A stretch of 38,080 nt of DNA from Lysobacteraceae bacterium (GTDB lineage: Bacteria > Pseudomonadota > Gammaproteobacteria > Xanthomonadales > Xanthomonadaceae): assembly GCA_024710865.1 (NCBI GenBank), contig JANJTY010000363.1, forward strand, positions 1 through 38,080. Reading direction: 5' to 3'. Below are positions 18,545-36,789 of the stretch, piece after piece. Position 1 is the stretch's first letter. The number at the start of each line of letters is the position of its first letter. Below the pieces are notes generated by a model. That model was given only the letters and a program-made list of their open reading frames with translations, was not told the origin of the DNA and ran no database searches. The position numbers were made by a program, and so were the translations under genes.

Positions 18545-18545
18545 G

Positions 18546-20390: not shown

Positions 20391-20413
20391 GGTGAACTTC
20401 CGCGCGTAAGGGG

Positions 20414-21253
20414 TTACTCGCCGAGGAGCGCGCGCAGTGCGGCGACTTCGGCTTCAAGTTCGAGGATGCGCTGGCCCGCGGCCATGTTCTTGCGCACTTC
20501 GTGGTCGTAGTGGCTGTAGACGCTCTCGTCCGCGTCGCCGAACAGCGCCAGCGCCGGCAGCTCGGGCGGCAGGTCACGGCGGCCGCAGACCGCGACAAAA
20601 TACAGCGGCGCGTAGTGCAGTCCGACCCGTGGCTCGCCGCCCTCCAAGGTCACGGCCTGCACGCCGCCTTCGCCCTCATCCAGCGCCCACAGCGCGGACT
20701 GGAACAGCAGCTTCTGGCCGTACAGGCGACGTCGCGCGAAGCGCGCCGCGAGCAGGGCCTCGAACTCATCGCGGTAGAGCTCGCGCACATGGAACTCGTT
20801 GCGGTAGCCGCGCAGATCGGAATACGTGCGCTTGTCGGGCGAGGAGATCACCAGCAGGCCATCGTCGCTGAGCAGGCGTACGAAACCGTCGAGCATCCGC
20901 TCCTGCGCTTCCACGTGCTCGAGCGTCTCGATGCTGACGATGAGGTCGAAGGCGCGGTCCGGCAGGTGGTCGAGCGCGGTGCAGTCGGCCTGGGCGAAGC
21001 GCAGCCCGTCGCGCACGTAGCGGCGGCCAGCGTGCGCCACGGCGGCCGGATCGATATCCAGCCCGAGCACACTGTGGGCGGCGCCAGCCAGCAGGGCGCT
21101 GCCGTAGCCTTCCCCGCAGGCGGCGTCGAGCACGCGGCGGCCGCGTGCCAGCGGCAGGGCGAAGGCATAGCGCGCCCAGTGCTCGTAGCGGATCTCGCGC
21201 ACGCACTCGGGCGTGAAGCGCTCGCCAGTGAATTCGAGGACGGGTTCAGACAT
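20414..21253 (-). CDS. Class I SAM-dependent methyltransferase with a short C-terminal coiled-coil
   Basis: 279 aa from ATG 21253 (MSEPVLEF...). SAM motif I is VLDAACGEGYGS, followed by post-I LGLDID and motif II/III LIVSIETLEHV. The C-terminus QRILELEAEVAALRALLGE is heptad-like. It overlaps the upstream GT2 stop by 8 nt. Confidence 0.85.
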   Translation of the reverse strand: MSEPVLEFTGERFTPECVREIRYEHWARYAFALPLARGRRVLDAACGEGYGSALLAGAAHSVLGLDIDPAAVAHAGRRYVRDGLRFAQADCTALDHLPDRAFDLIVSIETLEHVEAQERMLDGFVRLLSDDGLLVISSPDKRTYSDLRGYRNEFHVRELYRDEFEALLAARFARRRLYGQKLLFQSALWALDEGEGGVQAVTLEGGEPRVGLHYAPLYFVAVCGRRDLPPELPALALFGDADESVYSHYDHEVRKNMAAGQRILELEAEVAALRALLGE

Positions 21254-22109
21254 GGGTAGCCGAGGGAAACAGGGAAGGCTGCCAGCCGCTGGCCAGGCGG
21301 TCCAGGCTCTCGGCGAGGCGCAGGCGGAGGCCGCGCAGGGGGTCTTCCAGGATGAAGCGCGCGATACGCTCATTGTAGCCGGGGTAGCGCGCGTTCAGGC
21401 GTGCCAGGGCTTCGCCGCCCGGCTTGAGGCCCAGCGGGCCGAAGCTGGCACTGCCGCGGTGCAGCACGTAGGCGTCGTCGCACAGCACGTGGCGCCAGCC
21501 GTGCGCGGCGGCGCGCAGGCACCAGTCGTTCTCCTCCCCGTAGCCGCGCCCGAAGCTGGCGCGGTCGAAATCGCCGACCGCGTCGAGTGCGGCGCGGCGC
21601 AGGTACATGCAGAAGCCCACCGCGGTCGGCAGCTCCGGGTAGCGCGGCGGACCGGCCTCGCGCGCGGCGCGCGCGATCAGTTCCGCATCGAGTGGCGGAG
21701 GCGCAGCGCGGCACAGATCGGGAAAGCTGCAGATCTCGGCGTTGTTCGACCAGGGCGTGATGCTGGCGATGCGCGCATCGGCCGCGGCGCAGGCGGCGAT
21801 GCGATCAAGCCAGCCGGGGGTGGTCTCGGTATCGGAGTTGAGCAGGACCACATCGCGCGGCCCAACGTCGCGCATCGCCTGGTTGCAGTTGCCAACGAAG
21901 CCTAGGTTTTCAGGTCGGCGTTCGATGCGCACGCTGCAGCGCGCGCGCCGCGCGAAGGCATCGAGGATGGGTCCGACCGCCGGATCGGTGGAGGCATCAT
22001 CGGCGATCAACACCGCATCGGCCGGTTTGAGCGTGCGCAGCAGGCTGCCGAGGCAGGCGTCCAACGCTTCGGGCGCATTGAACACAGGCACGATCACGAA
22101 CGGGTTCAT
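21246..22109 (-). CDS. Family-2 glycosyltransferase
   Basis: 287 aa from ATG 22109 (MNPFVIVPVFNAPEAL). Further motifs are LIADDASTDP, LNSDT and GFCMYLRR. The ATGA start overlaps the wzt stop. The upstream part of tracked ORF 21246..22742 is discarded. Confidence 0.85.
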   Translation of the reverse strand: MNPFVIVPVFNAPEALDACLGSLLRTLKPADAVLIADDASTDPAVGPILDAFARRARCSVRIERRPENLGFVGNCNQAMRDVGPRDVVLLNSDTETTPGWLDRIAACAAADARIASITPWSNNAEICSFPDLCRAAPPPLDAELIARAAREAGPPRYPELPTAVGFCMYLRRAALDAVGDFDRASFGRGYGEENDWCLRAAAHGWRHVLCDDAYVLHRGSASFGPLGLKPGGEALARLNARYPGYNERIARFILEDPLRGLRLRLAESLDRLASGWQPSLFPSATHV

Positions 22110-23293
22110 GCGCCCTCCCCGCCCCAGCGGTGCGGCAGACGCACGATGCCCAGCTCGCGCGAAGCGCCGCGCACCATCAGTCCGCGGTCGACGGTATCGA
22201 ACAGACGCAGGCCTTCGGGGTCGAGCACGTGCAGCTTGAGCTGGTAGCCGCCGGGCAGCAGGGCCTCGGTCTCGATGCGGCAGCGGAAACGGAAGTGCGT
22301 CGCGTCCGCCCGCACGCCGCCCGCGCCGTCGATCTCGGTGCTGGTTCCGTACACCGGGGTTCCGTCCGCCCGCAGCAGACCGAAACCGAAGCGCGGCTCG
22401 CGTCCATCCGGCGAGTAGACCTCGACCTCGAATGCGATCGCCTCGCCTGGCGCCAGGGTGCGGGTGGCGGCGTCTTCGCTGCCGTTCAAGCGCACCGACG
22501 CGATGCGGTAGTCGGCGCCACTGTAGCCCGGATCGCGCTCCGGCCCGCTCTCGCGCAGGCTCTTTCGCTCGTGGTACGCGAGGTAGTCCTGGGTCACTTC
22601 GAACACATCGCCGCAGGCCCTGGCACGTCCGTCCTGCAGCCAGAGCGCCTGCCGGCACAGCTTCTGGACGTGGTACATGGAATGACTGACCAGCAGCAGG
22701 GTTCCGCCACCCTCCAGATAGTCCTCCATCCAGCGGATGCACTTCTTCTGGAAGCTCTCGTCGCCCACCGCCAGCACCTCGTCGGTGATCAGCAGGTCAG
22801 GGCGCCGTGCCGCGACGAGGGCGAACCCCAGGCGAACGACCATGCCGGAGGAGTAGTGCTTCACCGGTTCGTCGATGTAGCGACCGATGTCGGCGAAGGC
22901 GATGATGCCGTCCAGTTTGTCCTCGAACTCCGCCCCGCCCATGCCCATCAGCCGCGCGGCAGTCTCGAGGTTGCGGCGGCCGCTGTACTCGGGGTCGAAT
23001 CCCGCGCCCAGCTCAAGCAGGGCGCCGACCGAGCCGCGCCGCTCGACGCTCCCGGTCGAAGGCGTGAGCACGCCGCAGATGAGCTTCAGCAGGGTCGACT
23101 TGCCGGCGCCGTTCTCGCCGATGATGCCGAGCGACTGCCCGGGGTCGATCGAAAAGTCGATGCCCTGCAGCACGGGCTCGCGCCGCAGCGGCCGTCCCAT
23201 CAGGGTGCGGACGAAGGCGCCCGCGCGTGCCACCGCGCTGCTGCCAGCGGGATAGTGCTTGCCCAGTCCCTCGACACGCAGCAGCGCACTCAC
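22106..23293 (-). CDS. wzt: O-antigen/polysaccharide ABC exporter ATP-binding protein Wzt with a C-terminal glycan-binding-type domain
   Basis: 395 aa with a GTG start. Walker A is GENGAGKST, the ABC signature is YSSGM, and Walker B is LLITDE. A ~150-aa beta-rich C-terminal extension starts about RIASVRLNG. GTGA overlaps the wzm stop. Confidence 0.9.
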   Translation of the reverse strand: MSALLRVEGLGKHYPAGSSAVARAGAFVRTLMGRPLRREPVLQGIDFSIDPGQSLGIIGENGAGKSTLLKLICGVLTPSTGSVERRGSVGALLELGAGFDPEYSGRRNLETAARLMGMGGAEFEDKLDGIIAFADIGRYIDEPVKHYSSGMVVRLGFALVAARRPDLLITDEVLAVGDESFQKKCIRWMEDYLEGGGTLLLVSHSMYHVQKLCRQALWLQDGRARACGDVFEVTQDYLAYHERKSLRESGPERDPGYSGADYRIASVRLNGSEDAATRTLAPGEAIAFEVEVYSPDGREPRFGFGLLRADGTPVYGTSTEIDGAGGVRADATHFRFRCRIETEALLPGGYQLKLHVLDPEGLRLFDTVDRGLMVRGASRELGIVRLPHRWGGEGA

Positions 23294-24075
23294 AGGAAAT
23301 CCTCGATCGCCGGCCGGCAGCGACGGTGCACGAAGACCCCGAGCAGGACCAAGACGCCGGCACCGGCAGCCATGGCCAGCCAGGGCACGTCGCCGGTGGT
23401 CCCCAGCAGCAGATGGCGATGCGCTTCAACCATGCCGGTCATCGGATTCAGATCGAGCGCCGGCTGGAGCCAGTCGGGCACCATGTCGCGCGCGTAGATG
23501 ATCGGCGTCAGGAAGAACCAGAGCGAGAGCGCCAGACCCAGTGCCTGTGCCAGGTCGCGGATGAAGACCTGGGCCGAAGCGACGAGCAGGGCCATCCCGG
23601 CGGCGAGCGCCAGCAGCGGCACCCACAGCGCGATCACGGCAGGAAGCCAGGTCCAGTCGATGCGGACGCCGAGCAGGCCAAGCATGAGCAGTACGGCAAG
23701 GAATCCAAGCCCGTGCAGGAGAAAGGCCGCCAGCACGCGGGCGATCACCAGGGCGGACAACGAGACCGCGACCTTGCGCACCAGGCCGGCATGTTCGACG
23801 TAGGTGCTGGCGCCACGCGCGATCGACTCGCTGAGGGCAAACCAGGGCCAGAAGCCCAAAGCAAGGAAGGCTACGTACCCCAAACCCTCAAGGCCCGGAA
23901 TCCGGGCCTTGAAGATCTGCGCAAAGACCAGGTAGAAGATCGCCAGTTGCAGCAAGGGCGCGAGCAGTGCCCAGAGCAGCCCACCCACATTGCCCTCGAA
24001 GCGCGCAGCGAGATCCTGGCGGGCGAACAGCCGGCAGAGCTGCACCCAGCGCTGCAATCGGCCCTGCATGCTCAA
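23290..24075 (-). CDS. wzm: ABC-2 type polysaccharide exporter permease Wzm
   Basis: 261 aa with about six TM helices. The ABC-2 N-terminal pattern is L......R....RF.G...G..W....PL. The start is TTG 24075 or ATG 24069. It pairs with wzt. Confidence 0.88.
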   Translation of the reverse strand: MSMQGRLQRWVQLCRLFARQDLAARFEGNVGGLLWALLAPLLQLAIFYLVFAQIFKARIPGLEGLGYVAFLALGFWPWFALSESIARGASTYVEHAGLVRKVAVSLSALVIARVLAAFLLHGLGFLAVLLMLGLLGVRIDWTWLPAVIALWVPLLALAAGMALLVASAQVFIRDLAQALGLALSLWFFLTPIIYARDMVPDWLQPALDLNPMTGMVEAHRHLLLGTTGDVPWLAMAAGAGVLVLLGVFVHRRCRPAIEDFL

Positions 24076-25064
24076 TCGGCGTTCTGCCGCTGCTTCATGA
24101 GTTCTTCCCGGTGCTGGCGGATGGCTTCCACCGGCGGCACGCCGCCGGGTGCGTAGCGCCCACGCAGCGAGACCAGCAGGTCGGGATCGAGCTGAAACGT
24201 CTCGCCCTGGAATTCCGACAGGTGCTGCTCGCGCGCGCGCTTGCGGAAGTCTTCGCGCAGCTCGGCGACGATGGCGTCGCGCACCGTCTCAAAGGGCCGA
24301 ACGCGGGCCTCGCGGCGCTCCTCCAGTCGAATGACGTGGAAGCCGAAGTCGCTGCGGACCACCTCGGACAACTGACCGGGCTTGGCAAGGGCGAAGGCCG
24401 CCTCCTCGAAGGCAGGCGAAGTCTGGTTCGGCATCACGTTGCGCAGCAGGCCACCGTTGGAGCGTCCGGCTTCGGTGTCCTCCGAATAGTTCTCGACCAG
24501 GTTGGCGAAGTCCTCTCCTGCGCGCGCCTTCACCAGAACCGATTCGGCGATCTCGCGCGCCTTGGCCTCGCCGTGCTTCTCGACCGTCACCAGCACGTGG
24601 CGCACGTCGACGCTGGCCGGCACGGAGAAGCGGTCCGGCGTCGCCATGTAGCGCTCGCGCGCCAGCGGCTCGAAATCGGGCTCCTGCTGCTGCCGGGCCC
24701 ACTGGTCCAGGTAGCGACGCGCAAGAGCACGGTCCAGTGCCAGGCGGATCTGGGCCGCAACCACCGGGTCCTGGTCGAGCCCGAGTTCGCGCGCGCGTTC
24801 GGCCAGCTGCCGATCCATGATCAGGCCTTCGAGCAGGCGCTCGATGTTGCGCGGACTGTCCATGTAGTTGGCGCGCTTGTCGAACGGAATGCTTTCAACG
24901 GCTGCGTCGATGTCGTGCAGGGTGATGGTCGCGGCACCCCGCTTGACGACCACCTTGTCGGCGTCGGCGCCTTCGCCGGGGGCGGATTCAGCGGCGGCGC
25001 AGGGTGCAGCGATGAATAGAACGGTAACGGCAAGAGGTAGCAACGACTTCATGAACGGGCTCAT
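24072..25064 (-). CDS. Periplasmic parvulin-type peptidyl-prolyl isomerase (SurA/PpiD-like)
   Basis: About 330 aa. The Sec signal is MKSLLPLAVTVLFIAAPCAAA. The rotamase domain is V.VRHVLV.........A...A......AG.DFA.L...YSED......GG.L........P.F...AF.L..G..S..V.S.FGFH.I.L. The start is uncertain: ATG 25064, ATG 25052 or GTG 25088. Confidence 0.85.
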   Translation of the reverse strand: MSPFMKSLLPLAVTVLFIAAPCAAAESAPGEGADADKVVVKRGAATITLHDIDAAVESIPFDKRANYMDSPRNIERLLEGLIMDRQLAERARELGLDQDPVVAAQIRLALDRALARRYLDQWARQQQEPDFEPLARERYMATPDRFSVPASVDVRHVLVTVEKHGEAKAREIAESVLVKARAGEDFANLVENYSEDTEAGRSNGGLLRNVMPNQTSPAFEEAAFALAKPGQLSEVVRSDFGFHVIRLEERREARVRPFETVRDAIVAELREDFRKRAREQHLSEFQGETFQLDPDLLVSLRGRYAPGGVPPVEAIRQHREELMKQRQNAD

Positions 25065-25094
25065 TCTCGGTTGGGTGTCGGCGCCCACAAAGGC

Positions 25095-25167: not shown

Positions 25168-26280
25168 TCAGTTCAAGTTGGGCTGGAAGTTGGCTTCGCA
25201 CTTCGTGCCGGTTTCGCAGGAGATCGAGGGCGACTCCGACGTCGGATCCGCGAACAGGATATTGACGTAGTACTGCTTGCCCGCCTCGATCGCGCAGGTC
25301 GACGTGGACGATGCCGCTAGGGTGGTGTTGAAGTTGATGTTGTTCTTCTGGCCGGCCCGGCGGCAGCCGCGCTTGAGCGAATCGTCGCTGCTCTGGTTGT
25401 TTTCCTTGCGGAAATCGCCCCTGCACTTGCGGATCGTCACGTAGACGGCGTGTGCGGGGCGAGCAGCGAAGTAGCCGACAAGCGCAACGGCCTGCGCCTC
25501 GGCCCAGTCGAGCTTGTAGTTCTGGCCAGCAACCGGCGTGAACGGGATCACGATGTAGTTGTTGGAGACCGACTGGTCGTTGATCGTGCGCGATCCGATC
25601 GGGTGCAGGTAGGTGGTCGGCGTGAAGAACTGCGTGTTGTTGAAGGCGCTCGACCAGGACACGACACGCTCGGTATAGCCGGCAGGGGTGTACCAGGGGT
25701 CGGCGAGATTCGGGTCGATCGTGCAGCCGGGGTCAATCACCACGTCGGATTCTTCCACGGTGATGCTCGCCGTGCGCAGCGGTGATGCACCGCCCTCGTT
25801 CCAGCAGCGCAGCGCAAGGTTGTAGTTGCCTGGCGTGGTGAAGGTGAGATCCTGGTTGCTGCCGCCGACGCTCTTCAGCTTCACGTCGGTGGACGTTCCC
25901 GTCCAGGCGCTCAGCGCGGGGCTGCCGCCGGGAATGCTGGGCAAGCAGATCTGCGGGGTGTTTCCGGTCGTCCAGGTCAGCCGGCTGGTCTCGCCAGCCT
26001 TGATCGTCAGCGGGGAGGCGCTGAGCGACAGCGTAGGTGCTGCGGTGCTCGGACCCGTCGTCATGCCCTTGCACACGGTTGTGCCGGTCTCAAGCTCGCA
26101 GCTCGCGACGAGATTTCCGTTCTCGTCGAACTGGATCTGCGAGTTGTTGAGTATCGGCACCTGCACCGGTCCGGCGGTGGTGCTGGTGTTTTGGAACTGG
26201 ATGGATGTGGACTGGGCGGCGGCTCCGATCGGAACCAGCGCCGCCGCCATCATGGCGAGGGCAAGGCGGGTGCGTGTCAT
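25168..26280 (-). CDS. Secreted Cys-rich hypothetical protein (N-terminal Ig-like segment plus unknown C-terminal domain)
   Basis: 370 aa from ATG 26280, with GGAG 7 nt upstream. The Sec signal is MTRTRLALAMMAAALVPIGAAAQS. It has ten Cys. Residues ~75-160 read like a bacterial Ig-like module (LSASPLTIKAGETSRLTWTTGNT..C...WTGT......LTFTTPGNYNLALRCWNEGG). It is Asn/Thr/Ser-rich and lower in G+C than the flanks. Confidence 0.75.
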   Translation of the reverse strand: MTRTRLALAMMAAALVPIGAAAQSTSIQFQNTSTTAGPVQVPILNNSQIQFDENGNLVASCELETGTTVCKGMTTGPSTAAPTLSLSASPLTIKAGETSRLTWTTGNTPQICLPSIPGGSPALSAWTGTSTDVKLKSVGGSNQDLTFTTPGNYNLALRCWNEGGASPLRTASITVEESDVVIDPGCTIDPNLADPWYTPAGYTERVVSWSSAFNNTQFFTPTTYLHPIGSRTINDQSVSNNYIVIPFTPVAGQNYKLDWAEAQAVALVGYFAARPAHAVYVTIRKCRGDFRKENNQSSDDSLKRGCRRAGQKNNINFNTTLAASSTSTCAIEAGKQYYVNILFADPTSESPSISCETGTKCEANFQPNLN

Positions 26281-26320
26281 GGTGACTCCGTTGGGCGGGC
26301 GCTGTAATAGTTGTCCCTGC

Positions 26321-26349
26321 ATTGTCCGCCCGCTGGCGGAGAGCGTCAA
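26321..26349 (-). promoter_or_regulatory. Putative sigma70 promoter of the 370-aa gene
   Basis: On the minus strand: TTGACG (26349..26344), a 17-nt spacer, GACAAT (26326..26321). It sits ~40 nt upstream of ATG 26280 and immediately downstream of the 568-aa gene terminator. Confidence 0.35.
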
Positions 26350-26375
26350 CGCCGTGTTCTAAATCACTCCTGAAC

Positions 26376-26400
26376 AAAAAGGGGCCCCTTTCGGGGCCCC
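26376..26400 (-). terminator. Rho-independent terminator of the 568-aa gene
   Basis: GGGGCCCC (26393-26400) and GGGGCCCC (26381-26388) form a perfect 8-bp GC stem with a 4-nt loop. On the minus strand a TTTTT run follows (26380..26376). It lies 31 nt after the TAA stop. Confidence 0.8.
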
Positions 26401-26430
26401 TTCGGGTACAGCTTTGCAGACCGGACTGGA

Positions 26431-28137
26431 TTACGACCAGGCCAGCGGGTTGCCGTCCAGGTCGAGGACCGGGATCGGCGAACCATCCGCCTCGATGCCG
26501 TCGACGGTGTAGCCGTCGCGGTCGGCGCGGTGCTTGTGGATCTGCGAGTAGTTGCGCAGCGTGCCGGTGCCGGAATCGCCGTTGATGTAGTTGGCGACCC
26601 AGAAGCCCGTCACCGGGAGACCGGCGGCGAGGTTGTGGAAGCCGTCGCCGTCGACGTCATCGTCCACCATGTAGTGGGTCAGATCAGCCGGGGTGAAGAA
26701 CGGAGACGCAAAGTCGACACCGTCGTTGCCAAGCTGCATGCGCAGCCAGCCCTCGTGGAACTCGTCGGCCTCGTCAACCACGGTGTCGCCGTTCGAGTCG
26801 TTGCAGTTGCCCGCAGCGCCGAACACGCGGCAGAGGTTGATGTTACGCGCGACCGCAGCAGCCGAACCGAGGATCTCGGAATCGCCACCACCCTGGTTGT
26901 AGGTCACAACCTGGGCTTCGAAGCAGAGGTTCAGGCCAGGAGCCGTGACAACCGGCGGCGGCGGCGAGAACGGCACTTCGTCCGGAATGGTACCCGGGGT
27001 GTCTTCTTCACGATCCCAGAAGTTGATGTCGATCGGCTCGCACGCGCCGCCGCCACCGAAGCTGCTGATGAACGGACGACGCACGTTGCCGACGGTAGCC
27101 AGGTGCAGGCCCTTGGTCGGGAACGTGATGACCCACTCGGAGGACGCACCCATCGAAGCGGTGGTGTTGTACTCGTTGTAGATCTCGTTGTGCATGAACA
27201 GGGCCGAAACCGCGCGGAAGCGGGCGGTGTCGAACGCCATGGTCACCAGCGTGCCGTTGTCGAAGATGACCGCGGTCGAGGTACCACCGACCGGATCGGC
27301 CAGGAGGTCTTCGGCCTGGGCCAGGTTCGGCAGGATGCTGCCCGGGAAGGCGTGCAGCGGGCTGGCGGCGAGGTCCGGACGCACGAAGAAGCCTTCGATC
27401 GCATCCGGGTTGTACGAGTAGGCGATACCCGCGGCCACGTTGACCACGGAAGCGGCGCCGAACAGGCCACCCTCCGGCGGAGCAACGTCGTCATCGGTGT
27501 TCGGAGCAACACGCCACACGCCACCGGCCTGCCAGGCAGACTGGATCGCCGCGCAGTTGTTCGGCACCGGACGACCCGCAGCGGCCGAAGCGGCCGAGAA
27601 CGGGTTGTGCGTCGCCGCCGTGGCGAGGTTGAACGGAGCGGCACCCTGAAGGTCGCCCACGACGCCCATCTCGATGATTTCGATATGGCCTTCGCGGGTA
27701 CGGCTCAGGCTACTGGTGCCACCGTCGGCGTTCAGACCGGTGTACTGGTAGTTCACGAACGGCTGACCAGCGGTGGGGATCTGGGTCGGCGCGATGCACG
27801 AGGTATCGGACGAGAACAGGATGCCCGGGCCACCGGCGTTGCCGGCATCGGTCAGGGCGCCGGTCCAGACGTCGAACGGCGACAGGTACAGGTTGAAGTC
27901 CAGGACCTCTCGGCTGTTGTGGCCTTCGAGGAAGCGGACCTTGACGGCCTTGACGTCATCGGTGGTGTTGACCACCGAGAACACGGTGACCAGGCCATTG
28001 TTGACGGTGTAGTACGGATAGATGAGCACCTGACCCAGACCGTCCGGGTTGATGTTCATCGCGGTGGCGACATTCGCGAGGCCAGCGGCGCCCGCGATGC
28101 CGGCGACGACCGCAGTCGTCAGAGAACTCTTTTTCAT
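26431..28137 (-). CDS. Secreted hypothetical protein, probably abundant (family not recognised)
   Basis: 568 aa from ATG 28137; the tracked start at 28140 is a GTG one codon upstream. AGGAG SD lies 7 nt upstream. The Sec signal is MKKSSLTTAVVAGIAGAAGLANVATA. It has six Cys and Asp-rich motifs near the C-terminus (MVDDDVDGDGF, NDSNGDTVVDEADEF). Codon choice is enriched in CGT/GGT/GCT compared with neighbours. It has its own strong terminator. Confidence 0.85.
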   Translation of the reverse strand: MKKSSLTTAVVAGIAGAAGLANVATAMNINPDGLGQVLIYPYYTVNNGLVTVFSVVNTTDDVKAVKVRFLEGHNSREVLDFNLYLSPFDVWTGALTDAGNAGGPGILFSSDTSCIAPTQIPTAGQPFVNYQYTGLNADGGTSSLSRTREGHIEIIEMGVVGDLQGAAPFNLATAATHNPFSAASAAAGRPVPNNCAAIQSAWQAGGVWRVAPNTDDDVAPPEGGLFGAASVVNVAAGIAYSYNPDAIEGFFVRPDLAASPLHAFPGSILPNLAQAEDLLADPVGGTSTAVIFDNGTLVTMAFDTARFRAVSALFMHNEIYNEYNTTASMGASSEWVITFPTKGLHLATVGNVRRPFISSFGGGGACEPIDINFWDREEDTPGTIPDEVPFSPPPPVVTAPGLNLCFEAQVVTYNQGGGDSEILGSAAAVARNINLCRVFGAAGNCNDSNGDTVVDEADEFHEGWLRMQLGNDGVDFASPFFTPADLTHYMVDDDVDGDGFHNLAAGLPVTGFWVANYINGDSGTGTLRNYSQIHKHRADRDGYTVDGIEADGSPIPVLDLDGNPLAWS

Positions 28138-28279
28138 CACAACACTCCTAGATCAACCACAGGGCTTTATTGCTAACGGCTAACCCCACCCCGCCATAGC
28201 GGTTTGTCCCGCCTTCTATGGGCGAGGCTAGGCAACAGCGCACGCAGTCTACGACATGGCCGCAGGCGCGTGCAATCCC

Positions 28280-28714
28280 TTAACGAGCGGCCTCGCTGGG
28301 GATGTGGAACCAGTTCCCGTCCAGACGCAGCCAGGTCTCGCGCAGGATGGTGGACTGGTTGATCCGGCCGCCTCCGCGCAGGGGCACGGCCAGTTCGAAG
28401 TCGATGCGGATGCGGACTTCGCAGCGCTCGGCCTCCGGACACTCGACGTCGACCAACTCGGCCTTCTGCCAGCGCACCGGGCGCTGGGCGATCTCGTCGC
28501 GGTAGGCCTCGCGGGTCTTCGTGGCCCGGTAGCCTGGAGTGAGGTAGTCGTAGGCCAGCTCGCCCTGGCGGGCGATGAGGTGCTCCCAGCGCTTGACCGC
28601 ACGGACCTCCACGGTCTCGGCCTGCGGCTTGGAGGGCTTGGAGGGCGTGGCGGCACAGGCAGCGAGGAGAAGGGTCGCGGCGGCAGCAGCCAGACGCAGA
28701 GGGTTGCGGTTCAT
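28280..28714 (-). CDS. Small lipoprotein of unknown function, co-transcribed with gspD
   Basis: 144 aa. Lipobox LLLAAC in MNRNPLRLAAAAATLLLAACAATP. AAGGA SD is present, and the start is only 22 nt after the gspD stop. One internal Cys pair occurs in VECPEAERCEV. Confidence 0.8.
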   Translation of the reverse strand: MNRNPLRLAAAAATLLLAACAATPSKPSKPQAETVEVRAVKRWEHLIARQGELAYDYLTPGYRATKTREAYRDEIAQRPVRWQKAELVDVECPEAERCEVRIRIDFELAVPLRGGGRINQSTILRETWLRLDGNWFHIPSEAAR

Positions 28715-28736: not shown

Positions 28737-31025
28737 TCAGTCCGTCTCGATGTTCACGTCCTGCGTCGGCACCGGGCGCAGGATGTTGAGCGGTTCGAGG
28801 CCACGGAACTGGCGGCGGTAGTCGTCGGTGATGCGGCGGGCATCGGCGTCGTTGTAGATCACGCGCGGGGTGATGAGGACCATGAGTTCCTCCCGGACCT
28901 CCGAGCGCGCCTGGCGTCCGAAGAGGCTACCCAGGACCGGGATGCGCGAGAGGCCCGGAACGCCCTCGCGGCCACGCTGGTCGGTGTTCTTGATCAACCC
29001 GCCCAGGACCACAGTCTGGCCGCTTTGCACGGCCACCTCGGTGGTGATCGTGCGGTTGTCCACGGCCTGGTTGCCACTGGCGTTCGGGGCACCGACCGGG
29101 GCGCTCTCCTGCTGGTCCACCTCCATGAACACGAGACCACCGGGATTGACCCGCGGCGTCACCGTCAGGGTGATACCGGTCTGGCGGAACTGGACGTAGC
29201 TCTGGTTGAGGTTGCCAGTGTTGTTGTTGCCGCCGCTGTTGATGAAGCTGCTGGTCACCGGAATCTGGGTACCCACGTTGATCGTGGCGGACTTGTTGTT
29301 GAGCACGGTGAGCGTCGGCGCCGAGAGCACCGTCGCCTTGCTCACGCTGTCCAGCGTGGAGATGATGGCGGCGGCGCTTGGACCGACGAAACTCCAGCCC
29401 AGTCCACCGCTATTCGCTACACCACCGATTCCACTGAAGCCTCCCCGACCGGCGGCAACCTGGGGAACGTTGACGCCATAGCTCGATGCTGCGGGAAACG
29501 TGGTGACTGCGTTCTCGAAGAACCACTGCACGCCGAACTCGAGTTCCTCGTTCAGCGTCACCCGCACGATCTGTGCCTCGATGAAGACCTGCAGCGGGAT
29601 GGTGTCGAGGCGCTCGATGGTGCGGCGGATGGACTCCCACTGCCCGGAGGTGGCGCGCACCAGCAGCGCGTTGCTCTCTTCGACCGCGGAGATGCGCACC
29701 TCCTCGACCGAGCCAAGCGCGATGCCGCCGGCACCGTCGACGACCGGACCGCTGACCGCCGCGCCGCCACCCGCAGCGACGCCGCCATCCGAACCACGCG
29801 AGCCGCCGCCCGAGGAACGCACCGGAGCGGCCTTGGCCGCATCCGGCAGCTCAGGCTGGCCGCTGCGCCCCAGGGTGCGCACCTCGACCGGGTTGAGGCC
29901 GGGCATGAGCGGATCGCCGGACGGGCTGCGCGTCGAGGTGGCGACCGAACCACCACCCGTGCCGAAGATGTCGCCCAGGGTCGCGGCCAGATCGACCGCC
30001 TTGACGTTCTTGACGTCGTAGACATAGAGCCGCTGCGCGGCCTGGTCGCCGCCGAGATCGAAGCGCTCCAGCCACTCCTCGATCGCGCCCAGGTAGCGCG
30101 GCTGCGGCGTGATCACCATGACCGAATTGACGCCCTCCAGCACGAGGAAGCGGAACATGCCCGCCATCGGGGTGTTGGCGCCCTCGCCGAACAGCTTCTC
30201 CAGCTCGCCAACCACCGTGCCGGCTTCGGCCTGCATGAGCGGGAAGATGCCGACCGACATGCCCTCGAGCCAGTCGACGTCGAAGATCTCGACCGTCTGC
30301 AGGTAGAGCTCCAGCTCGGCCCGCGTGCCGCCCAGGATCAGCAGGTTGCGCGCGTTGTCGACGTTGACGATGGCCTGCGGGCGGGCGTAGGGCTTGAGCA
30401 CCTTCTCCATCTCGGTGGCGGAGATGAAGCGCAGCGGCACGGCGCGCACCTCGTAGCCGCGCTGCTGGGAGAGCGGCCCGCTGCGCGGGCTCAGGTTGCC
30501 GGAGATGGCGCGGTCGACCGGCACGATGGTGTAGCGGCCATCGCCCCAGATCATCGCGGCGTTGTTCCAGGACAGCAGCATCTCCAGCACCGACATGGCC
30601 TGGTCGGCGCGGATCGGCCGCGCCGTCGAGAAGGTGACCGAGCCCTGCACGCCGGGCGCGATCACGTAGTTCTCCTGCAGCAGGTCGCCGAGGATGGTCT
30701 TGATCACCGCCTGCAGCGACTCGCCCTCGAAGTTGAAGGTGACCTCGCCCGCGGCGGAGGTGGCCGGCGGGCGGCGCGCGGCCGCGTCCTCGTCGATGAA
30801 GCGGCCGCTGCCTTCGTCGATCTGGCGCAGCGGCGGTTCTTTCGCGCCCTCGTCCTCCGCGGCATCCGCTCCGGCGTCGCGGGCGGATGATGGATCGGCG
30901 GCGACCGCGGTGTAGGTCGGTTCGCCCTCGCGGTGCGCGGAGTCGCGCAAGGAAGGTCCGGTCGCGCAGCCGCCCAGCAGGACGAGGGCGATCGCTGCCA
31001 GAGCGATGGGGAGAGCGTTCTTCAT
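28737..31025 (-). CDS. gspD: Type II secretion system secretin GspD (XpsD-type, lipidated)
   Basis: 762 aa. N0/N1-type repeats start at VTFNFEGESLQAVIKTILGDLL. The secretin core includes VLNNKSATINVGTQIPV and VVLGGLI...........VPGLSRIPVLG.LF. The N-terminal lipobox is LVLLGGC. Confidence 0.95.
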   Translation of the reverse strand: MKNALPIALAAIALVLLGGCATGPSLRDSAHREGEPTYTAVAADPSSARDAGADAAEDEGAKEPPLRQIDEGSGRFIDEDAAARRPPATSAAGEVTFNFEGESLQAVIKTILGDLLQENYVIAPGVQGSVTFSTARPIRADQAMSVLEMLLSWNNAAMIWGDGRYTIVPVDRAISGNLSPRSGPLSQQRGYEVRAVPLRFISATEMEKVLKPYARPQAIVNVDNARNLLILGGTRAELELYLQTVEIFDVDWLEGMSVGIFPLMQAEAGTVVGELEKLFGEGANTPMAGMFRFLVLEGVNSVMVITPQPRYLGAIEEWLERFDLGGDQAAQRLYVYDVKNVKAVDLAATLGDIFGTGGGSVATSTRSPSGDPLMPGLNPVEVRTLGRSGQPELPDAAKAAPVRSSGGGSRGSDGGVAAGGGAAVSGPVVDGAGGIALGSVEEVRISAVEESNALLVRATSGQWESIRRTIERLDTIPLQVFIEAQIVRVTLNEELEFGVQWFFENAVTTFPAASSYGVNVPQVAAGRGGFSGIGGVANSGGLGWSFVGPSAAAIISTLDSVSKATVLSAPTLTVLNNKSATINVGTQIPVTSSFINSGGNNNTGNLNQSYVQFRQTGITLTVTPRVNPGGLVFMEVDQQESAPVGAPNASGNQAVDNRTITTEVAVQSGQTVVLGGLIKNTDQRGREGVPGLSRIPVLGSLFGRQARSEVREELMVLITPRVIYNDADARRITDDYRRQFRGLEPLNILRPVPTQDVNIETD

Positions 31026-31037: not shown

Positions 31038-31775
31038 CTATTCCTTGCTGTCGTTGTTGCCGCGCGCCGCGGCTTCCCGCATCTGGCGTCGACGTTCTTC
31101 GATCCGCCGCCGGATGAGCTCGGCGCGCGACTCCGGCGTTTCCGCCGCTGCGGTGCCGGGCTCGCTGGGCTGCTCGGCGCTGCCGTCTGCATTGGTGGCC
31201 GCGACCGTGGCGCCGTCGGCGCCGGCCGGCTGCGCGGTCAGCGCGGTCGGGGCTTCGCCGCCGGAGCCGTCGAACACGCGCAACTCGGCCTCGGCTCGCC
31301 CCGTGGGGCCTTCGAAGACCGCCTTGCGCGCCTGGAGTTCAACCAGCTTCCAGCCCACCTGCTCGCCCTCGAGGCTGGACCCGACCCGCACGCTCTGCGA
31401 GGCGCGGCTGCGGTTGTCCTGCACGATGGCAATACGGGTGTCGCCGCTAATGATGACGCTGGTGAGGGTGATCTCGAGCGGCGCAGGCGGCGGGGCTTCG
31501 GCCTCACCGGCAGGCGCCTCGTCCGGCGGCACCGGGCGCCGGTCGGCATTGAATAGCGGACGCTGTCCGACCTCGGCATAGTGCTCGGGCTCGGGCAGCT
31601 CGGTGCGCGCACGGGAGAGGTCGAGGGTCGGCACCGGCGGCACCGCGGCGGGATCGTCGGGGTGCAGCGAGACCCGTCCGCCGAGACCGCCGAACGCCAC
31701 CAGCGCCACCAGCAGGGCCCAGACCGCGAACAGGCCGAGCACGAGGGTCGAAACCGGGATGTCGCGCGCCTGCAT
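31038..31775 (-). CDS. gspN: T2SS inner-membrane component XpsN/GspN (GspC-equivalent of xps-type systems)
   Basis: 245 aa from ATG 31775, a 1-nt overlap with the gspM stop. It has a single N-terminal TM (VLGLFAVWALLVALVAF) and an HR-like beta segment (ITLTSVIISGDTRIAIVQDN...VGWKLVEL....AVFEG). It sits between gspM and gspD as in xps clusters. The C-terminal tail is charged and coiled-coil-like, and no PDZ domain was seen. Confidence 0.65.
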   Translation of the reverse strand: MQARDIPVSTLVLGLFAVWALLVALVAFGGLGGRVSLHPDDPAAVPPVPTLDLSRARTELPEPEHYAEVGQRPLFNADRRPVPPDEAPAGEAEAPPPAPLEITLTSVIISGDTRIAIVQDNRSRASQSVRVGSSLEGEQVGWKLVELQARKAVFEGPTGRAEAELRVFDGSGGEAPTALTAQPAGADGATVAATNADGSAEQPSEPGTAAAETPESRAELIRRRIEERRRQMREAAARGNNDSKE

Positions 31776-32368
31776 CAGTTGCCACCCTTCTGTCGCAGGT
31801 AGCCCGACAGGTCGAAACTGATGTCGAGGTAGCTTGGGTTCCGGTTCTGGCCGCGCGGCACCTGCACGCCGCGACGGCTCACGCTGAGCTGCTCGACCAG
31901 CAACATCGGGCTGCCGCCCTCGAGCCCGTGCAGGACCTCGATGAAGTCCTCCAGCTCGCAGCGCATGCGGACCTTGATCGTGACGCGCTGGAAGACCTCG
32001 GACTCGCGCGACCGGAATGGGGTGCGACTGACCACCGAACAGCGCTCGCTGGACGAGGCGCGCTCGCCGATCAAGGCCTCCAGGCGCTGGATCAGGGCGG
32101 CGGCGGCGAGGTCGAAGTTGGCCTCGGCCAGGAAGCCGGGATTGTCGGCCTCGAAGCGACGCACCTCGGCCAGGCGCTCTTCCACCTGCGGTCGCTGCTG
32201 CGCGGTGGCACGGAACTGGAACTCCTGGTCGCGCAGCTCGATGAGCTGCTCGCGCATGTCGAGGTGCGGCGCCACGAACCACCAGTGCAGGCCCACGAGG
32301 TAGACCAGCAGCAGGGCGATCAGCAGCATCACCACGGCAAGGAAGCCGCCGTGCTTAGCGTCGGGCAT
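31775..32368 (-). CDS. gspM: T2SS protein M (GspM, subtype b)
   Basis: 197 aa from ATG 32368 (MPDAKHGGFLAVVMLLIALLLVYLV...). It has a single TM followed by a ferredoxin-like periplasmic domain, in the expected position after gspL. The longer tracked start at 32440 is Arg/Pro-rich and overlaps gspL. Confidence 0.7.
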   Translation of the reverse strand: MPDAKHGGFLAVVMLLIALLLVYLVGLHWWFVAPHLDMREQLIELRDQEFQFRATAQQRPQVEERLAEVRRFEADNPGFLAEANFDLAAAALIQRLEALIGERASSSERCSVVSRTPFRSRESEVFQRVTIKVRMRCELEDFIEVLHGLEGGSPMLLVEQLSVSRRGVQVPRGQNRNPSYLDISFDLSGYLRQKGGN

Positions 32369-33497
32369 CAGCCGCACCGGCCTTCTCCTCGGTCTGCGGG
32401 CCGTAACCGGCGGTGATCTGGAAGCGGTCCTTGCCGGCACGCTGGTCGGGCTGGATCGGTCCGGACAGGGACGGATCGCGCAGCAGCTGGGAGGACTGCA
32501 GCAGGGTCAGCAGCGCCGCCGCCTGACTTGAGAGCCCGTGCATGGTCACGCGCTCGCCATCGAAGTTGAGCCGTTCCAGGTAGGTATCATCCGGCAGCAG
32601 ACGGGTGAGCTCGTTCAGCAGGTCGGCCATGATCGGCTGCTGCGCCCTGCGCACGGCCAGGAAATTGGCTCCCTCCACCGCCTCGTCCAGGCCGCGGCGG
32701 AACTGGTTGACCGCGCGCGCTTCGGCGCGCTGGGTCTCGACCTCGGCATCGAGCCGCGCCAGGGCGGCCTCGCGGTTGGCCAGGGTCTGGTTCATCGCCA
32801 GGAGCAGCAGCAGCAGGAAGGCCACGACCAGGCCCGTGTTGATCCACAGCCAGAGGTTGGCGCGGCGGACGCGGCGCTCCGGCGGCAGCAGGTTGAAGCC
32901 GGCACGGCGGCCTTCCAGGCCGCGCACATCGACCGCGTCCAGGGTTGCCGCCAAGGGGCCGAGCGCAGCCAGGGCTTCGTCCAGACGCGAGCGCGGCACC
33001 AGGGCGATCTCGACCCGGATCTGCTTGCCGCCCGCCTCTTCGCCGCGCACCTTGGCATCGAAGTGCACCTGGTCGGGCTTGAACGGCGTCTGCCGGTCCA
33101 GTTCGAAGCCCAGTACCGACTGCAGGCGCTCACGCGCCGCGGCCGGCAGGGGCAGGATCCGGCGCAGCACGCGCGCGGGCGGCAGCAGCAGCACGCGCCG
33201 CGCGTCCCGGGCTTCGTGCGCGAAACGCTCGACGATCTCGGCCACCGCCTCCGCGCTGTCGGCCCGCACCGCTTCGCGCGCCTCCCCGGCCTGCCCGGGC
33301 AGGCGCAGGTCCACCCCGCCAGGAACCGGTTCGATCTCGATCCAGGCGCGTTCCGTGCGCAGCGCCGCCTGCCAGCGCGTGGGCAGCAGCGCACGCAGCT
33401 GGCCGAACCACCAGTCCAGGAAGGCCGGCAGCGGTGAAGCTTCGTAGCGGGCCTTGAGCCGCTGGAGCGGAATATCGAGAGCGTCGGCGAGTGGCAT
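32355..33497 (-). CDS. gspL: T2SS protein L (GspL/XpsL)
   Basis: 380 aa. A cytoplasmic N-domain is followed by a central TM (LWLWINTGLVVAFLLLLLLAM) and a PilN-like periplasmic domain. It sits between gspK and gspM. Confidence 0.75.
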   Translation of the reverse strand: MPLADALDIPLQRLKARYEASPLPAFLDWWFGQLRALLPTRWQAALRTERAWIEIEPVPGGVDLRLPGQAGEAREAVRADSAEAVAEIVERFAHEARDARRVLLLPPARVLRRILPLPAAARERLQSVLGFELDRQTPFKPDQVHFDAKVRGEEAGGKQIRVEIALVPRSRLDEALAALGPLAATLDAVDVRGLEGRRAGFNLLPPERRVRRANLWLWINTGLVVAFLLLLLLAMNQTLANREAALARLDAEVETQRAEARAVNQFRRGLDEAVEGANFLAVRRAQQPIMADLLNELTRLLPDDTYLERLNFDGERVTMHGLSSQAAALLTLLQSSQLLRDPSLSGPIQPDQRAGKDRFQITAGYGPQTEEKAGAADARR

Positions 33498-34387
33498 CAG
33501 AGGGCTTCCCCCTCCTGCCAGCGCAGGACGGTGTAGGCAAGTCCGGAGGTTCCGACGCCACCCAGGCGGAGCGTGACCTGCAGCTCCGTCCAGGCCCCGT
33601 TAGGAAGGGTGGCGCGCGACTTAATACTATACGTTCCGCTTCCGCCCTGTGCCATGAGCGGGGTTCCGTCCGGCAGGGTGGGCGGGCTCAGGCCCGAGTT
33701 GGGGTCGAACAGATGGCGCTGGTCGATCACGTCGCGCGCGGTCTGCTCGTCCATGCCCGGCCAGGCCCGCAAGGCCTCGAGCGGAGCAAAGGCCGGATTG
33801 AACTGGCCCTGTCCGGTATAAACGGTAATCGCGCCCTGCAGGCGCTGGTACAGGGCGAAATCGACCCCCAGCACCTGCTGCAGTTCGTCGGTGAGATCGA
33901 AGGGCGCATTCTTCGGGCCATGGCCCAGCCCCTCGGCATCGTACTCATCGACCTCGGCGCCATTCGGCATGACCAGGTCGTCCGGATCGCGGAAGTCGAT
34001 GACGGCATCGGCGAGGCGCACCGCTTCCAGTTCGTCCAGCCCGGCCACCATGAACAGGTTGATCAGGCCCTGCTGGTCGGCGGCGTTGATGTCGATCTTG
34101 CCGGATTCGTCGGTCACCTCGATCACGACCTCGGCCTCCTCGAAGGAAAACTGATAGGGCCGACCATCGGGAATCCAGCGTCGCTCCGGGTCCGGATCGA
34201 ACAGGCTGAGCACGGAACGGTTGATGCCGGCCTCGGCCGCGTAGCGCGCCTGGGTGCTGTCGAACAGGTGACGCGACTGCAGCGCTTCGGTGCGGGCGAG
34301 CAGGGTGAACGCACCCATCAGCACCGCCAGCAGGGCCAGCAGCCAGATCACGACGATGAAGGCGATGCCACGCTGGTTGCGCCTCAT
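33497..34387 (-). CDS. gspK: T2SS minor pseudopilin GspK
   Basis: 296 aa. The N-terminus is MRRNQRGIAFIVVIWLLALLAVL, with a GspK-type hydrophobic segment and no Glu+5. The motif ESGKIDIN and a helix-hairpin-helix-like region are present. Confidence 0.9.
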   Translation of the reverse strand: MRRNQRGIAFIVVIWLLALLAVLMGAFTLLARTEALQSRHLFDSTQARYAAEAGINRSVLSLFDPDPERRWIPDGRPYQFSFEEAEVVIEVTDESGKIDINAADQQGLINLFMVAGLDELEAVRLADAVIDFRDPDDLVMPNGAEVDEYDAEGLGHGPKNAPFDLTDELQQVLGVDFALYQRLQGAITVYTGQGQFNPAFAPLEALRAWPGMDEQTARDVIDQRHLFDPNSGLSPPTLPDGTPLMAQGGSGTYSIKSRATLPNGAWTELQVTLRLGGVGTSGLAYTVLRWQEGEAL

Positions 34388-35202
34388 CGGTCGGGCCTCG
34401 GCCGTCGCCCGCCGTCACCCGGATCCGGACTACCCGGGTTCGGTCCATTCAGGCCCGGCGGCGGTCGCATGCCGGGATTGCCGCCCAGCCCCGCGCCCTC
34501 CAGTCCGACATTGCCGAGTCCCGGCACGGCAACCGCACGCATCAGCGGCACTTCCAGCGGCGGCCAGCGCATCTGCACTCGCTCCGGCCACTCCACGTTC
34601 AGCCGCACCATCAGAGGCAGGCGGGCACGGTCCTCCCAGCTCGACAGCCATTCGCCGAGCATGCCCTCCTCGTCCAGACCGCGGTACTCGAAGCTGGCAT
34701 CGCTTGCGCCCTTCAGCAGCACTACCGGCGGTCGCTGTTCGCGCGGCGCGGGTTCGAGCGGGTCGAAGCCGTTCAGCAGCACGTGCTCGAACTCCAGGCG
34801 CAGGCCGTCGCCGTCCGAGCGCAGGCTCAGGGTCTGGACGTGGGCGCCGCCGCGCGCGAGGTAGCCGGGCATGGGCGCGACGAAGCGCAGGGTCTCGCCA
34901 TCGCCCTCGAAGACCTTGTTTTCATCGGCGCCAAGGTCGACGCGCTCGAACATCATGGGCAGGGCGAAGGACAGCTGGCGACGCAGGAACTGCTGCGCCA
35001 CCCGCAAGCGCTCGGTGCGGTCGATCAGGGCCTCGCCGCGCTCCACCGAGGCCGCGGTGGTGCGGAAAGCGCCGTAGGCCAGGCTCATCAACAAGGCCAG
35101 CAGGACCAGCGCGACCACCACCTCCATCAGGGTGAAGCCGCGCTCGGGGCTCACGGCACTGCGCCAGCGACCGGCGCCACCGCAACGACGGGAGCGCATC
35201 AT
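34384..35202 (-). CDS. gspJ: T2SS minor pseudopilin GspJ with a Gly/Pro-rich C-terminal tail
   Basis: 272 aa from ATG 35202, an ATGA overlap with the gspI stop. The prepilin motif is ERG|FTLMEVVVALVLL. The C-terminal ~50 aa are low-complexity Gly/Pro. The upstream part of tracked ORF 34384..35700 is discarded. Confidence 0.85.
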   Translation of the reverse strand: MMRSRRCGGAGRWRSAVSPERGFTLMEVVVALVLLALLMSLAYGAFRTTAASVERGEALIDRTERLRVAQQFLRRQLSFALPMMFERVDLGADENKVFEGDGETLRFVAPMPGYLARGGAHVQTLSLRSDGDGLRLEFEHVLLNGFDPLEPAPREQRPPVVLLKGASDASFEYRGLDEEGMLGEWLSSWEDRARLPLMVRLNVEWPERVQMRWPPLEVPLMRAVAVPGLGNVGLEGAGLGGNPGMRPPPGLNGPNPGSPDPGDGGRRPRPDR

Positions 35203-35663
35203 TGGCCGGGATCCGGCGTCAGGGCGCGCAGGGTCACGAAGCGGGCGCTGCGGCGGCCGTCCTGGCCCCAGCGCACCTCGAGTTCCAGCCGCATCAGCTC
35301 GGCCGGCACGCTGCTGATGCCGCCGCCCTGGTCGAACTCCTCCAGCAGCAGTGGCTCGACCCGCAGGGTCCATTCGTAGCGTTCGTCCCAGGTGCCCGAG
35401 GTCTCGCCTTCCTGCAGGCGCTCGCCTACGCCGGCGGCGTCGAGCAGGCTTTGCGCGAGCAGCGCGGCCTCGGTGCGTTCGGCGGCGATGCGCGCCTGAC
35501 GCACCGAACCCGCCACGCTCTGCATCGCCAGGCTCATGCCGAGCGCGAGGACGACGAAGGCCGCCACGATCTCGATCAGGCTGTAGCCGCGCTGGCGGCG
35601 GCGGACGGGGAGGCGATGGCGAAGCATGGCGGCTGAGACCGCGCGTTCCCGGCGCAAGTTCAT
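35199..35663 (-). CDS. gspI: T2SS minor pseudopilin GspI
   Basis: Prepilin motif QRG|YSLIEIVAAFVVLAL. The start is ATG 35663 (ATGA overlap with the gspH stop) or ATG 35627. Confidence 0.85.
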   Translation of the reverse strand: MNLRRERAVSAAMLRHRLPVRRRQRGYSLIEIVAAFVVLALGMSLAMQSVAGSVRQARIAAERTEAALLAQSLLDAAGVGERLQEGETSGTWDERYEWTLRVEPLLLEEFDQGGGISSVPAELMRLELEVRWGQDGRRSARFVTLRALTPDPGQ

Positions 35664-36298: not shown

Positions 36299-36342
36299 GG
36301 CCTGGCCTTCGCAGCCGCGCCGTCAGGAACGCGCGCCGGCGC

Positions 36343-36786: not shown

Positions 36787-36789
36787 CGC

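Follow-up and report, generated by a model that had tools for sequence, protein, structure and literature searches.

The gene considered here lies on the minus strand of a 38,080-nt stretch of contig JANJTY010000363.1 from a Lysobacteraceae bacterium (the window). It encodes a 568-aa product, which is very probably a highly expressed surface-layer (S-layer) protein of the NpdA family linked to a type II secretion system (T2SS). The NpdA family itself has been described, and the domain databases Pfam and NCBIfam do not contain it. The gene and its immediate signals are as follows.

26431..28137, minus strand: npdA-family gene for a putative S-layer protein; open reading frame (ORF) of 568 aa, with NpdA homology and an AlphaFold2 model
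28060..28137, minus strand: Sec-type signal peptide of 26 codons, read directly, with predicted cleavage between ATA and MN
28145..28149, minus strand: Shine-Dalgarno sequence AGGAG, with a 7-nt spacer to the ATG
28138..28279, minus strand: 142-bp intergenic region upstream of npdA; putative promoter and 5' leader
26370..26403, minus strand: intrinsic terminator; 11-bp GC-rich stem AAGGGGCCCC-GAAA-GGGGCCCCUU, followed by UUUGUU

The npdA gene and its product

The npdA ORF starts with ATG, which is directly preceded by a GTG codon at 28140. Its G+C content at third codon positions is 0.84, which is typical for coding sequence in the window. The predicted mature protein is acidic (isoelectric point ~4.2) with a mass of ~57 kDa, and these properties, together with the lack of a known domain, are typical of S-layer proteins. 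At the N-terminus, MKKSSLTTAVVAGIAGAAGLANVATA followed by MN, a basic n-region, a hydrophobic core and an A-x-A site can be read directly from the sequence.

Conservation was assessed in an alignment of 56 NpdA-family sequences. Residues 1-40, which include the signal-peptide region, average 80% column identity, and the first ~80 residues, signal peptide included, are ~80% identical. Among the Lysobacterales homologues the signal peptide is near-invariant (MKK[SN]SLTTAVVAG[ILV]AG[VA]AGL...), which is unusual for signal peptides. This invariance may reflect selection on export efficiency or on mRNA features of a very abundant protein.

The product contains six cysteines, at positions 114, 195, 366, 405, 436 and 445. 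Of these, Cys 114, 195, 366 and 405 are invariant in 56/56 homologues and align with the four cysteines of NpdA from Paracidovorax citrulli; Cys 436 and Cys 445 occur in only 18-20 of the 56. Three Asp-rich strings lie at residues 446-460, 490-500 and 558-564, and the second of them holds one exact DxDxDG (DVDGDG). These segments are lineage-specific and poorly conserved, with 8-21% column identity and 35-91% occupancy, and a test for EF-hand or DxDxDG motifs found no Ca-binding loop conserved among the homologues. The strings are thus best described, from the alignment, as variable insertions of the target's sub-lineage and not as features of the NpdA family.

Searches of Pfam, NCBIfam, PDB sequences and PDB profiles with the target gave no match, the sole PDB sequence hit being a calmodulin-related protein at E = 1.4. 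AlphaFold2, run with the 56-sequence alignment, returned a confident, mostly beta model (mean predicted local distance difference test score, pLDDT, 86.7; predicted template modelling score 0.88). Confidence was low only in the signal peptide (residues 1-21, pLDDT <50) and at residues 386-397. A Foldseek comparison of the model with PDB and BFVD returned nothing at E ≤ 1e-3. The best resemblances in PDB were galectin/LamG-type beta-sandwiches (E 0.025), too weak for use, and there appears to be no solved NpdA structure.

A separate promoter for npdA and its 5' leader are presumed to lie in the 142-bp region upstream of the gene. This region carries the inverted repeat CCATAG...CTATGG, and a consensus scan reported no sigma-70 site in it. 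A simple consensus terminator scan did not detect the hairpin downstream of npdA, and the hairpin was therefore folded directly: the 81-nt stretch 26355-26435 has a minimum free energy of -32.2 kcal/mol (z = -3.1).

An earlier note on this DNA, made from the letters alone, had already read the Sec signal, the six cysteines, the near-ideal ribosome-binding site (AGGAG-N7-ATG) and the hairpin with T-run, and all four readings hold. It had seen no family signature either, and the hidden Markov model and structure searches that it proposed have now been run, without a confident match in PDB, BFVD, Pfam or NCBIfam. Its Ca-binding-like Asp-rich strings are present; as a Ca-binding feature of the family they did not stand.

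Membership of the NpdA family

NpdA was named in 2011 in Delftia sp. Cs1-4, where its knockout loses both the S-layer and the nanopods (Shetty et al. 2011, PMC3110197). In P. citrulli, deletion, proteomics and electron cryomicroscopy (cryo-EM) identified the S-layer as NpdA (Gajbhiye et al. 2023, PMC10765051). Taken together, the evidence that NpdA is the S-layer subunit comprises knockout, immunogold labelling and cryo-EM (PMC3110197, PMC10765051). An oligomer of >150 kDa that resists sodium dodecyl sulfate is a further trait of NpdA; layer formation has been shown in full only for Delftia and P. citrulli, with imaging for other cultures (PMC3110197, PMC10765051).

The second paper lists NpdA orthologues from 62 Betaproteobacteria and 49 Gammaproteobacteria, among them Chiayiivirga sp., Rudaea cellulosilytica, Dokdonella, Rhodanobacter denitrificans, Tahibacter and Lysobacter sp., each npdA with an upstream cluster of 12 gsp genes (PMC10765051). 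Sixteen additional npdA-bearing cultures were imaged by cryo-EM, and the abstract counts an NpdA-like S-layer in 15/16; the only exceptions named in the text are P. valerianellae and S. psychrophila (PMC10765051). Rudaea cellulosilytica was among the imaged cultures (Fig. S6P) and is not one of the named exceptions (PMC10765051).

We compared the target with the published NpdA sequences taken from the supplement of PMC10765051. With NpdA of P. citrulli AAC00-1 (WP_011797163, Aave_4148) BLASTP gave 30% identity over 389 aa (E 1e-25). Alignment of the family profile with the same protein (hhalign) gave a probability of 99.9% and E 1.5e-36, spanning residues 1-514 against 1-532 with the four cysteines aligned. 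Full-length homology with aligned cysteines extends to NpdA of Delftia sp. Cs1-4 and D. acidovorans. The target and P. citrulli NpdA share the motifs GxxLxxPYY/F, VVNT, KAVKVRF, LDFxxxxSPxDVWT and TREGxxExxxM.

The Lysobacterales orthologues are closer, with 37-45% full-length identity and the same type of locus: 45% for Chiayiivirga sp. (E 3e-122), 41% for Rudaea cellulosilytica (E 7e-100) and 37% for Dokdonella koreensis (E 1e-76). The homologue P0107 from our own search, which shares 46% identity with the target, corresponds to the paper's Chiayiivirga orthologue (96.6% identity despite errors of optical character recognition).

The target also has the general traits of the family. Like the P. 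citrulli and Delftia proteins it carries a Sec signal of ~25 aa (25 aa in P. citrulli NpdA; PMC10765051), has a mature size within 52-61 kDa, lacks a database domain and adjoins a gsp cluster. It differs from them in its overall identity of ~30%, the Cys436/445 loop, the Asp-rich segments and the C-terminal tail. NpdA of Rudaea, Dokdonella and Rhodanobacter ends in a short Cys-x-Cys tail (...SC...C[S/N]), whereas the target and Chiayiivirga have a longer tail, ...[F/W]xxS. By sequence, the target is established as a member of the NpdA family.

The earlier note had called the product an orphan of an undescribed family, and this has to be given up. Homologues numbered at least 3,931 in a word-indexed search. 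An exhaustive profile search yielded no fewer than 4,201 clusters (50% identity), and 2,005 of these scored below E 1e-30. None of these NpdA-family clusters carries a Pfam domain, and every named one is a 'hypothetical protein'. Several members (P0121, P0122, P0124, P0127, P0135 and others) are ~930-970 aa long (one has 1,647 aa) and contain at least two stretches matching the NpdA profile. These long members thus seem to carry the NpdA unit more than once.

Codon usage and expression

The earlier note had pointed to a shift towards CGT, GGT and GCT codons, and this shift is strong in comparison with the neighbouring genes. In npdA, CGT accounts for 8/18 codons of its box, GGT for 22/62, GCT for 15/69 and CCG for 35/37, whereas the neighbouring genes have fractions of at most ~0.22 for CGT and GGT and ~0.19 at most for GCT. 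We examined the same quantities across two sets of loci. The gamma set comprises the best 80 loci from a scan of one genome per species, with relatives in at least 557 genomes; the beta set comprises 80 Comamonadaceae-type loci, for which the query was an alignment of NpdA sequences published for Betaproteobacteria. The gamma loci are mostly from Lysobacterales (Chiayiivirga, Aquimonas, Rudaea, Denitratimonas, Pseudomarimonas, Ahniellaceae, Marinicellaceae and Rhodanobacteraceae), and the rest have only broader labels. The homologues show the same shift in 73-74 of 74 gamma loci, far beyond chance. Family-wide median fractions for npdA and its neighbours were 0.42 vs ~0.12 (CGT), 0.38 vs ~0.16 (GGT), 0.23 vs ~0.05 (GCT) and 0.86 vs ~0.57 (CCG).

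The window holds no ribosomal-protein genes, and we therefore used a fold-rule test in place of the codon adaptation index. In highly expressed prokaryotic genes, four-fold codon boxes shift to U-ending codons and two-/three-fold boxes to C-ending ones (Wald et al. 2012, PMC3424539). We calculated U/(U+C) in both classes for npdA and its neighbours. In the window, the four-fold boxes gave 0.27 for npdA vs 0.105 for the 21 other genes pooled, and the two-/three-fold boxes 0.11 vs 0.139. The four-fold value of npdA exceeded that of the neighbours in 74/74 gamma and 20/20 beta loci; the two-/three-fold value did so in only 3/74 and 0/20.

This pattern of U in four-fold and C in two-/three-fold boxes is the signature expected of translational selection and supports very high expression of npdA. 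Horizontal gene transfer or AT-drift was rejected as the cause of the shift because either would raise U in both codon classes, and U is depleted in the two-/three-fold boxes. Besides its codon usage, npdA has a strong ribosome-binding site and a terminator of its own. The signature fits the abundance of NpdA in Delftia and P. citrulli, where it is a dominant band in preparations of cell envelope or surface extract (PMC3110197, PMC10765051).

Gene neighbourhood

The genes around npdA, in the order in which they are read, are listed below.

31038..38007, minus strand: remainder of an Xps-type T2SS operon, gspF, G, H, I, J, K, L, M and N (Pfam T2SSF, T2SSG, GspH, N_methyl, T2SSK, PilN, T2SSM_b)
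28737..31025, minus strand: GspD/XpsD secretin (Secretin, Secretin_N and GspD N0 domains)
28280..28714, minus strand: conserved small lipoprotein, 144 aa, lipobox LAAC, between gspD and npdA
25168..26349, minus strand: variable secreted protein, in Lysobacterales-type loci only; ORF without family match
24072..25088, minus strand: periplasmic parvulin-type peptidyl-prolyl isomerase (PPIase), SurA/PrsA-like, with Rotamase domains
23290..24075, minus strand: Wzm, ABC-2 exporter of an O-polysaccharide-type glycan
22106..23293, minus strand: Wzt with Wzt_C carbohydrate-binding domain, same exporter type
21246..22103, minus strand: GT2 glycosyltransferase, inside a longer out-of-context ORF (21246-22742)
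20414..21373, minus strand: methyltransferase, true start probably near 21253
18546..20390, minus strand: 614-aa protein of unknown family, glycan synthesis cluster
17681..18544, minus strand: GT2, glycan synthesis cluster

The gspE gene lies beyond the end of the window. The gene at 31038-31784 has an orthologue in a close relative of the locus (L161) that carries PF28060 XpsN. Between wzt and the methyltransferase gene we considered a gene-free gap at 21374-22105 and rejected it, the GT2 gene filling the interval.

The gene order is near-uniform in all 80 gamma loci, on one strand: gspF-G-H-I-J-K-L-M-N-D, the lipoprotein, npdA, often a variable ORF, then the parvulin PPIase, wzm, wzt, methyltransferase, 614-aa protein and GT2. 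The gspD gene is upstream of npdA in 68/68 gamma and 17/20 beta loci. The earlier note had placed the gene next to the xps secretin; the two are neighbours, although not immediate ones, as the 144-aa lipoprotein gene lies between them.

The secretin begins MKNALPIALAAIALVLLGGC with the lipobox LLGGC and is probably a lipidated, self-piloting secretin, judging from this N-terminus. HxcQ and XpsD are known secretins of this kind. Because GspD has its own lipobox, the small lipoprotein is probably not a pilotin; moreover, in another gamma locus (L018) it co-varies with npdA and not with gspD, and the pilotin assignment was set aside. The lipoprotein is found directly upstream of npdA in 72/74 gamma and 24/30 beta loci. 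Its family (~140 aa, alignment A3) has two further invariant cysteines and two invariant tryptophans. It has no relative in PDB, and none in Pfam or NCBIfam beyond weak NTF2-like matches (DUF4440/DUF4864/DUF6491). By its position we regard it as a candidate S-layer assembly or anchoring factor.

The parvulin PPIase, downstream of npdA in 60/62 gamma and 19/19 beta loci, is likewise a candidate NpdA chaperone by position. The variable secreted protein between npdA and the PPIase gene was detectable in 22 of the 80 gamma loci and in no beta locus. It has ~370 aa, is rich in Thr, Ser and Asn, shows ordinary codon usage, and its true start is likely near 26280 (MTRTRLALAMMAAALVPIGAAAQ).

Wzm is found downstream of npdA in 58/62 gamma and 14/19 beta loci, and Wzt in 58/62 and 19/19. 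The glycan synthesis genes at 17681..22103 are syntenic in most gamma loci. A set of Wzm/Wzt, methyltransferase and glycosyltransferases is typical of the methyl-capped, ABC-transporter-dependent O-polysaccharide pathway (WbdD/Wzt systems). In locus L081, where NpdA shares 79% identity with the P. citrulli protein, npdA is also followed by the parvulin, Wzm and Wzt (Wzt_C), and further downstream by methyltransferases and a large methyltransferase-GT2-GT4/GT1 protein. The parvulin-Wzm/Wzt stretch of this locus is at L081:11696-14875. A few genes past the glycan cluster of the window lies a large GAF-GAF-GGDEF-EAL cyclic-di-GMP signalling protein (13488-16478, minus strand).

The module of T2SS, lipoprotein, npdA, parvulin and Wzm/Wzt is thus conserved in Gamma- and Betaproteobacteria. 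In the parts of PMC10765051 that were examined, discussion is confined to the gsp genes upstream and a single hypothetical ORF, 'X'. The main text, as examined, does not mention lipopolysaccharide (LPS), an isomerase or a lipoprotein, and the supplement as examined contains no ABC, isomerase, lipoprotein or wzt. The parvulin/Wzm/Wzt companions are unmentioned in those parts of the two NpdA papers that were examined, and they may be a modest new lead.

Variation of the cassette between relatives

We compared the window with two related gamma loci. In L161, a relative at 86% identity, the usable alignments were 79-96% identical to the window, except for the variable secreted protein (66%); gspN was left out of this comparison, its query being off-frame. 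In L018 the T2SS and glycan genes were 57-86% identical, whereas npdA, the variable secreted protein, the PPIase and the lipoprotein were only 27-44% identical. The L018 lipoprotein gene has also been relocated and follows the PPIase gene (L018:9998-15037, compared with 24072-28714 in the window).

These four genes co-vary as a unit, as would be expected if a fast-evolving surface protein and its interaction partners changed together. The GC content of the window dips to 0.63-0.66 over 25-29 kb, compared with ~0.70 elsewhere. It looks like the central S-layer cassette has been exchanged between relatives.

Comparison with other S-layer loci

The P. citrulli/Delftia-type locus resembles that of the target: a gsp cluster ending in gspD and a small hypothetical ORF is followed by npdA, the parvulin and Wzm/Wzt. 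Lysobacterales loci differ from it by the gene for the variable secreted protein between npdA and the PPIase gene. P. citrulli has two gsp clusters (PMC10765051).

A similar arrangement is known from the A-layer of Aeromonas salmonicida, where the S-layer gene vapA and a T2SS lie in an ABC-2 wzm/wzt O-antigen cluster (PMC4483657). There, vapA and its dedicated Sps T2SS are placed between wzm and wzt, whereas in the window wzm and wzt are adjacent and downstream of npdA (PMC4483657). VapA is a major cell protein of Aeromonas, which has a separate general T2SS. The likeness of the target to Aeromonas VapA/AhsA-Sps is an architectural resemblance, not family membership.

RsaA of Caulobacter crescentus requires Ca2+ and attaches to O-antigen LPS by an N-terminal domain; PDB holds RsaA structures. 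The family profile search of PDB sequences was empty and so showed no sequence similarity between the target and RsaA. RsaA differs from the target in its export by a type I system and its RTX-like repeats; like the target, it is a Gram-negative S-layer protein whose gene is clustered with secretion genes (PMC10765051).

Proposed assembly and alternative explanations

We propose that pre-NpdA crosses the inner membrane via Sec and would then fold in the periplasm, where the four invariant cysteines probably form two disulfides and the adjacent parvulin PPIase possibly helps folding. The adjacent Xps-type T2SS would export the folded protein, which would assemble into a paracrystalline lattice on the outer membrane. 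In such a lattice the near-invariant N-terminal ~160 residues could be a membrane-proximal core or anchor, and the variable insertions, including the Asp-rich DxDxDG-like segments, would be exposed at the surface. The conserved small lipoprotein may serve as an assembly or anchoring accessory.

Attachment may occur via LPS, namely a methyl-capped O-polysaccharide made by the adjacent wzm-wzt-methyltransferase-glycosyltransferase genes. In vitro reconstitution of the Delftia acidovorans NpdA lattice required LPS (PMC3110197). We suggest a dedicated O-polysaccharide anchor because the locus mirrors that of vapA and because NpdA lattices need LPS; the conserved synteny and the LPS requirement support such anchoring, which would resemble that in Aeromonas and Caulobacter, without proving it. 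For a wider model the arguments seem to us evenly balanced. It holds that NpdA S-layers are built by one conserved system, consisting of an Xps-type T2SS with lipidated secretin, an NTF2-like lipoprotein, NpdA, a parvulin and a Wzm/Wzt methyl-capped O-polysaccharide anchor, within which the cassette of npdA, PPIase, lipoprotein and the Lysobacterales variable protein can be exchanged among close relatives.

Several points weigh against an S-layer function of the target. The organism is known here from sequence alone, and a genetic test of the T2SS dependence of NpdA is named as future work in PMC10765051. Conservation of 40-55% between families exceeds that of many S-layer proteins. The codon bias was measured against neighbouring genes, the window offering no ribosomal-protein genes as a benchmark, and the shift to U-ending codons is absent from the window's ahpC, whose product is often abundant. 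In addition, the npdA-bearing P. valerianellae shows no clear bead-like S-layer (PMC10765051).

This last case would also suit a homologue that does not form a cell-covering lattice here and is instead a loose surface protein, a vesicle-sheath ('nanopod') protein or a conditionally expressed one. NpdA does make nanopod tubes round outer-membrane vesicles as well (PMC3110197, PMC10765051), and the target lineage has extra insertions and a C-terminal tail different from those of Rudaea and Dokdonella. We nevertheless consider this improbable. An NpdA-like S-layer was counted in the abstract for 15/16 imaged cultures, and Rudaea, the nearest relative among those imaged, is no exception (PMC10765051). 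The translational-selection signature, too, speaks for constitutive expression at a very high level.

It is highly improbable that the product is a soluble T2SS-secreted enzyme or binding protein, lectin-like or glycan-degrading, that is released to the medium. The adjoining T2SS, the weak Foldseek likeness to galectin/LamG-type beta-sandwiches and the many charged residues that are invariant in the family would agree with such a protein; against it stand the lack of a structural match at E 1e-3 in PDB or BFVD and of any match to a catalytic family, and the full-length homology to NpdA, which knockout, immunogold labelling and cryo-EM have shown to be the S-layer subunit. A porin or another abundant beta-barrel protein of the outer membrane would share the beta-rich fold, the abundance and the codon bias of the target. 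Foldseek returned no barrels, however, although PDB is rich in porins, the C-terminus (...NPLAWS) has no terminal aromatic residue, and the homologous S-layer protein is extractable with LiCl (PMC10765051). A porin identity therefore has next to no probability and was rejected.

The reading as a T2SS-linked NpdA-family S-layer protein thus remains by far the most probable one. The earlier note's abundant, surface-associated structural protein survives in it, supported by the S-layer family and the codon bias, without the undescribed family.

Other features of the window

Outside the S-layer locus, the window carries a complete RNase P RNA of bacterial class A (4751-5109, minus strand, 302 bits). 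The AhpC peroxiredoxin gene (3913-4476) adjoins one for an AhpF-like thioredoxin/pyridine-nucleotide disulfide reductase (2138-4476 for both, minus strand); the ORF list fuses the reductase into a 794-aa ORF that overlaps ahpC. At the window edge, just upstream of gspF, lies a perfect 7-bp tandem repeat (CGGGATT, 4.3 copies, 38021-38050).

Significance

Through the assignment, a large 'hypothetical' family absent from Pfam and NCBIfam, with at least 4,201 clusters and occurrence in at least 557 reference genomes, can be named and linked to a function. With a confident AlphaFold model and no relative in PDB, NpdA is worth structure determination. The lipoprotein, the parvulin and Wzm/Wzt are concrete candidates for the folding and anchoring of an S-layer exported by a T2SS. 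Our findings also imply an S-layer on many Lysobacterales of environmental and wastewater origin (Chiayiivirga, Aquimonas, Rudaea, Denitratimonas and others), which would matter for their interactions with phages and predators, for the formation of vesicles and 'nanopods', and for their surface chemistry.

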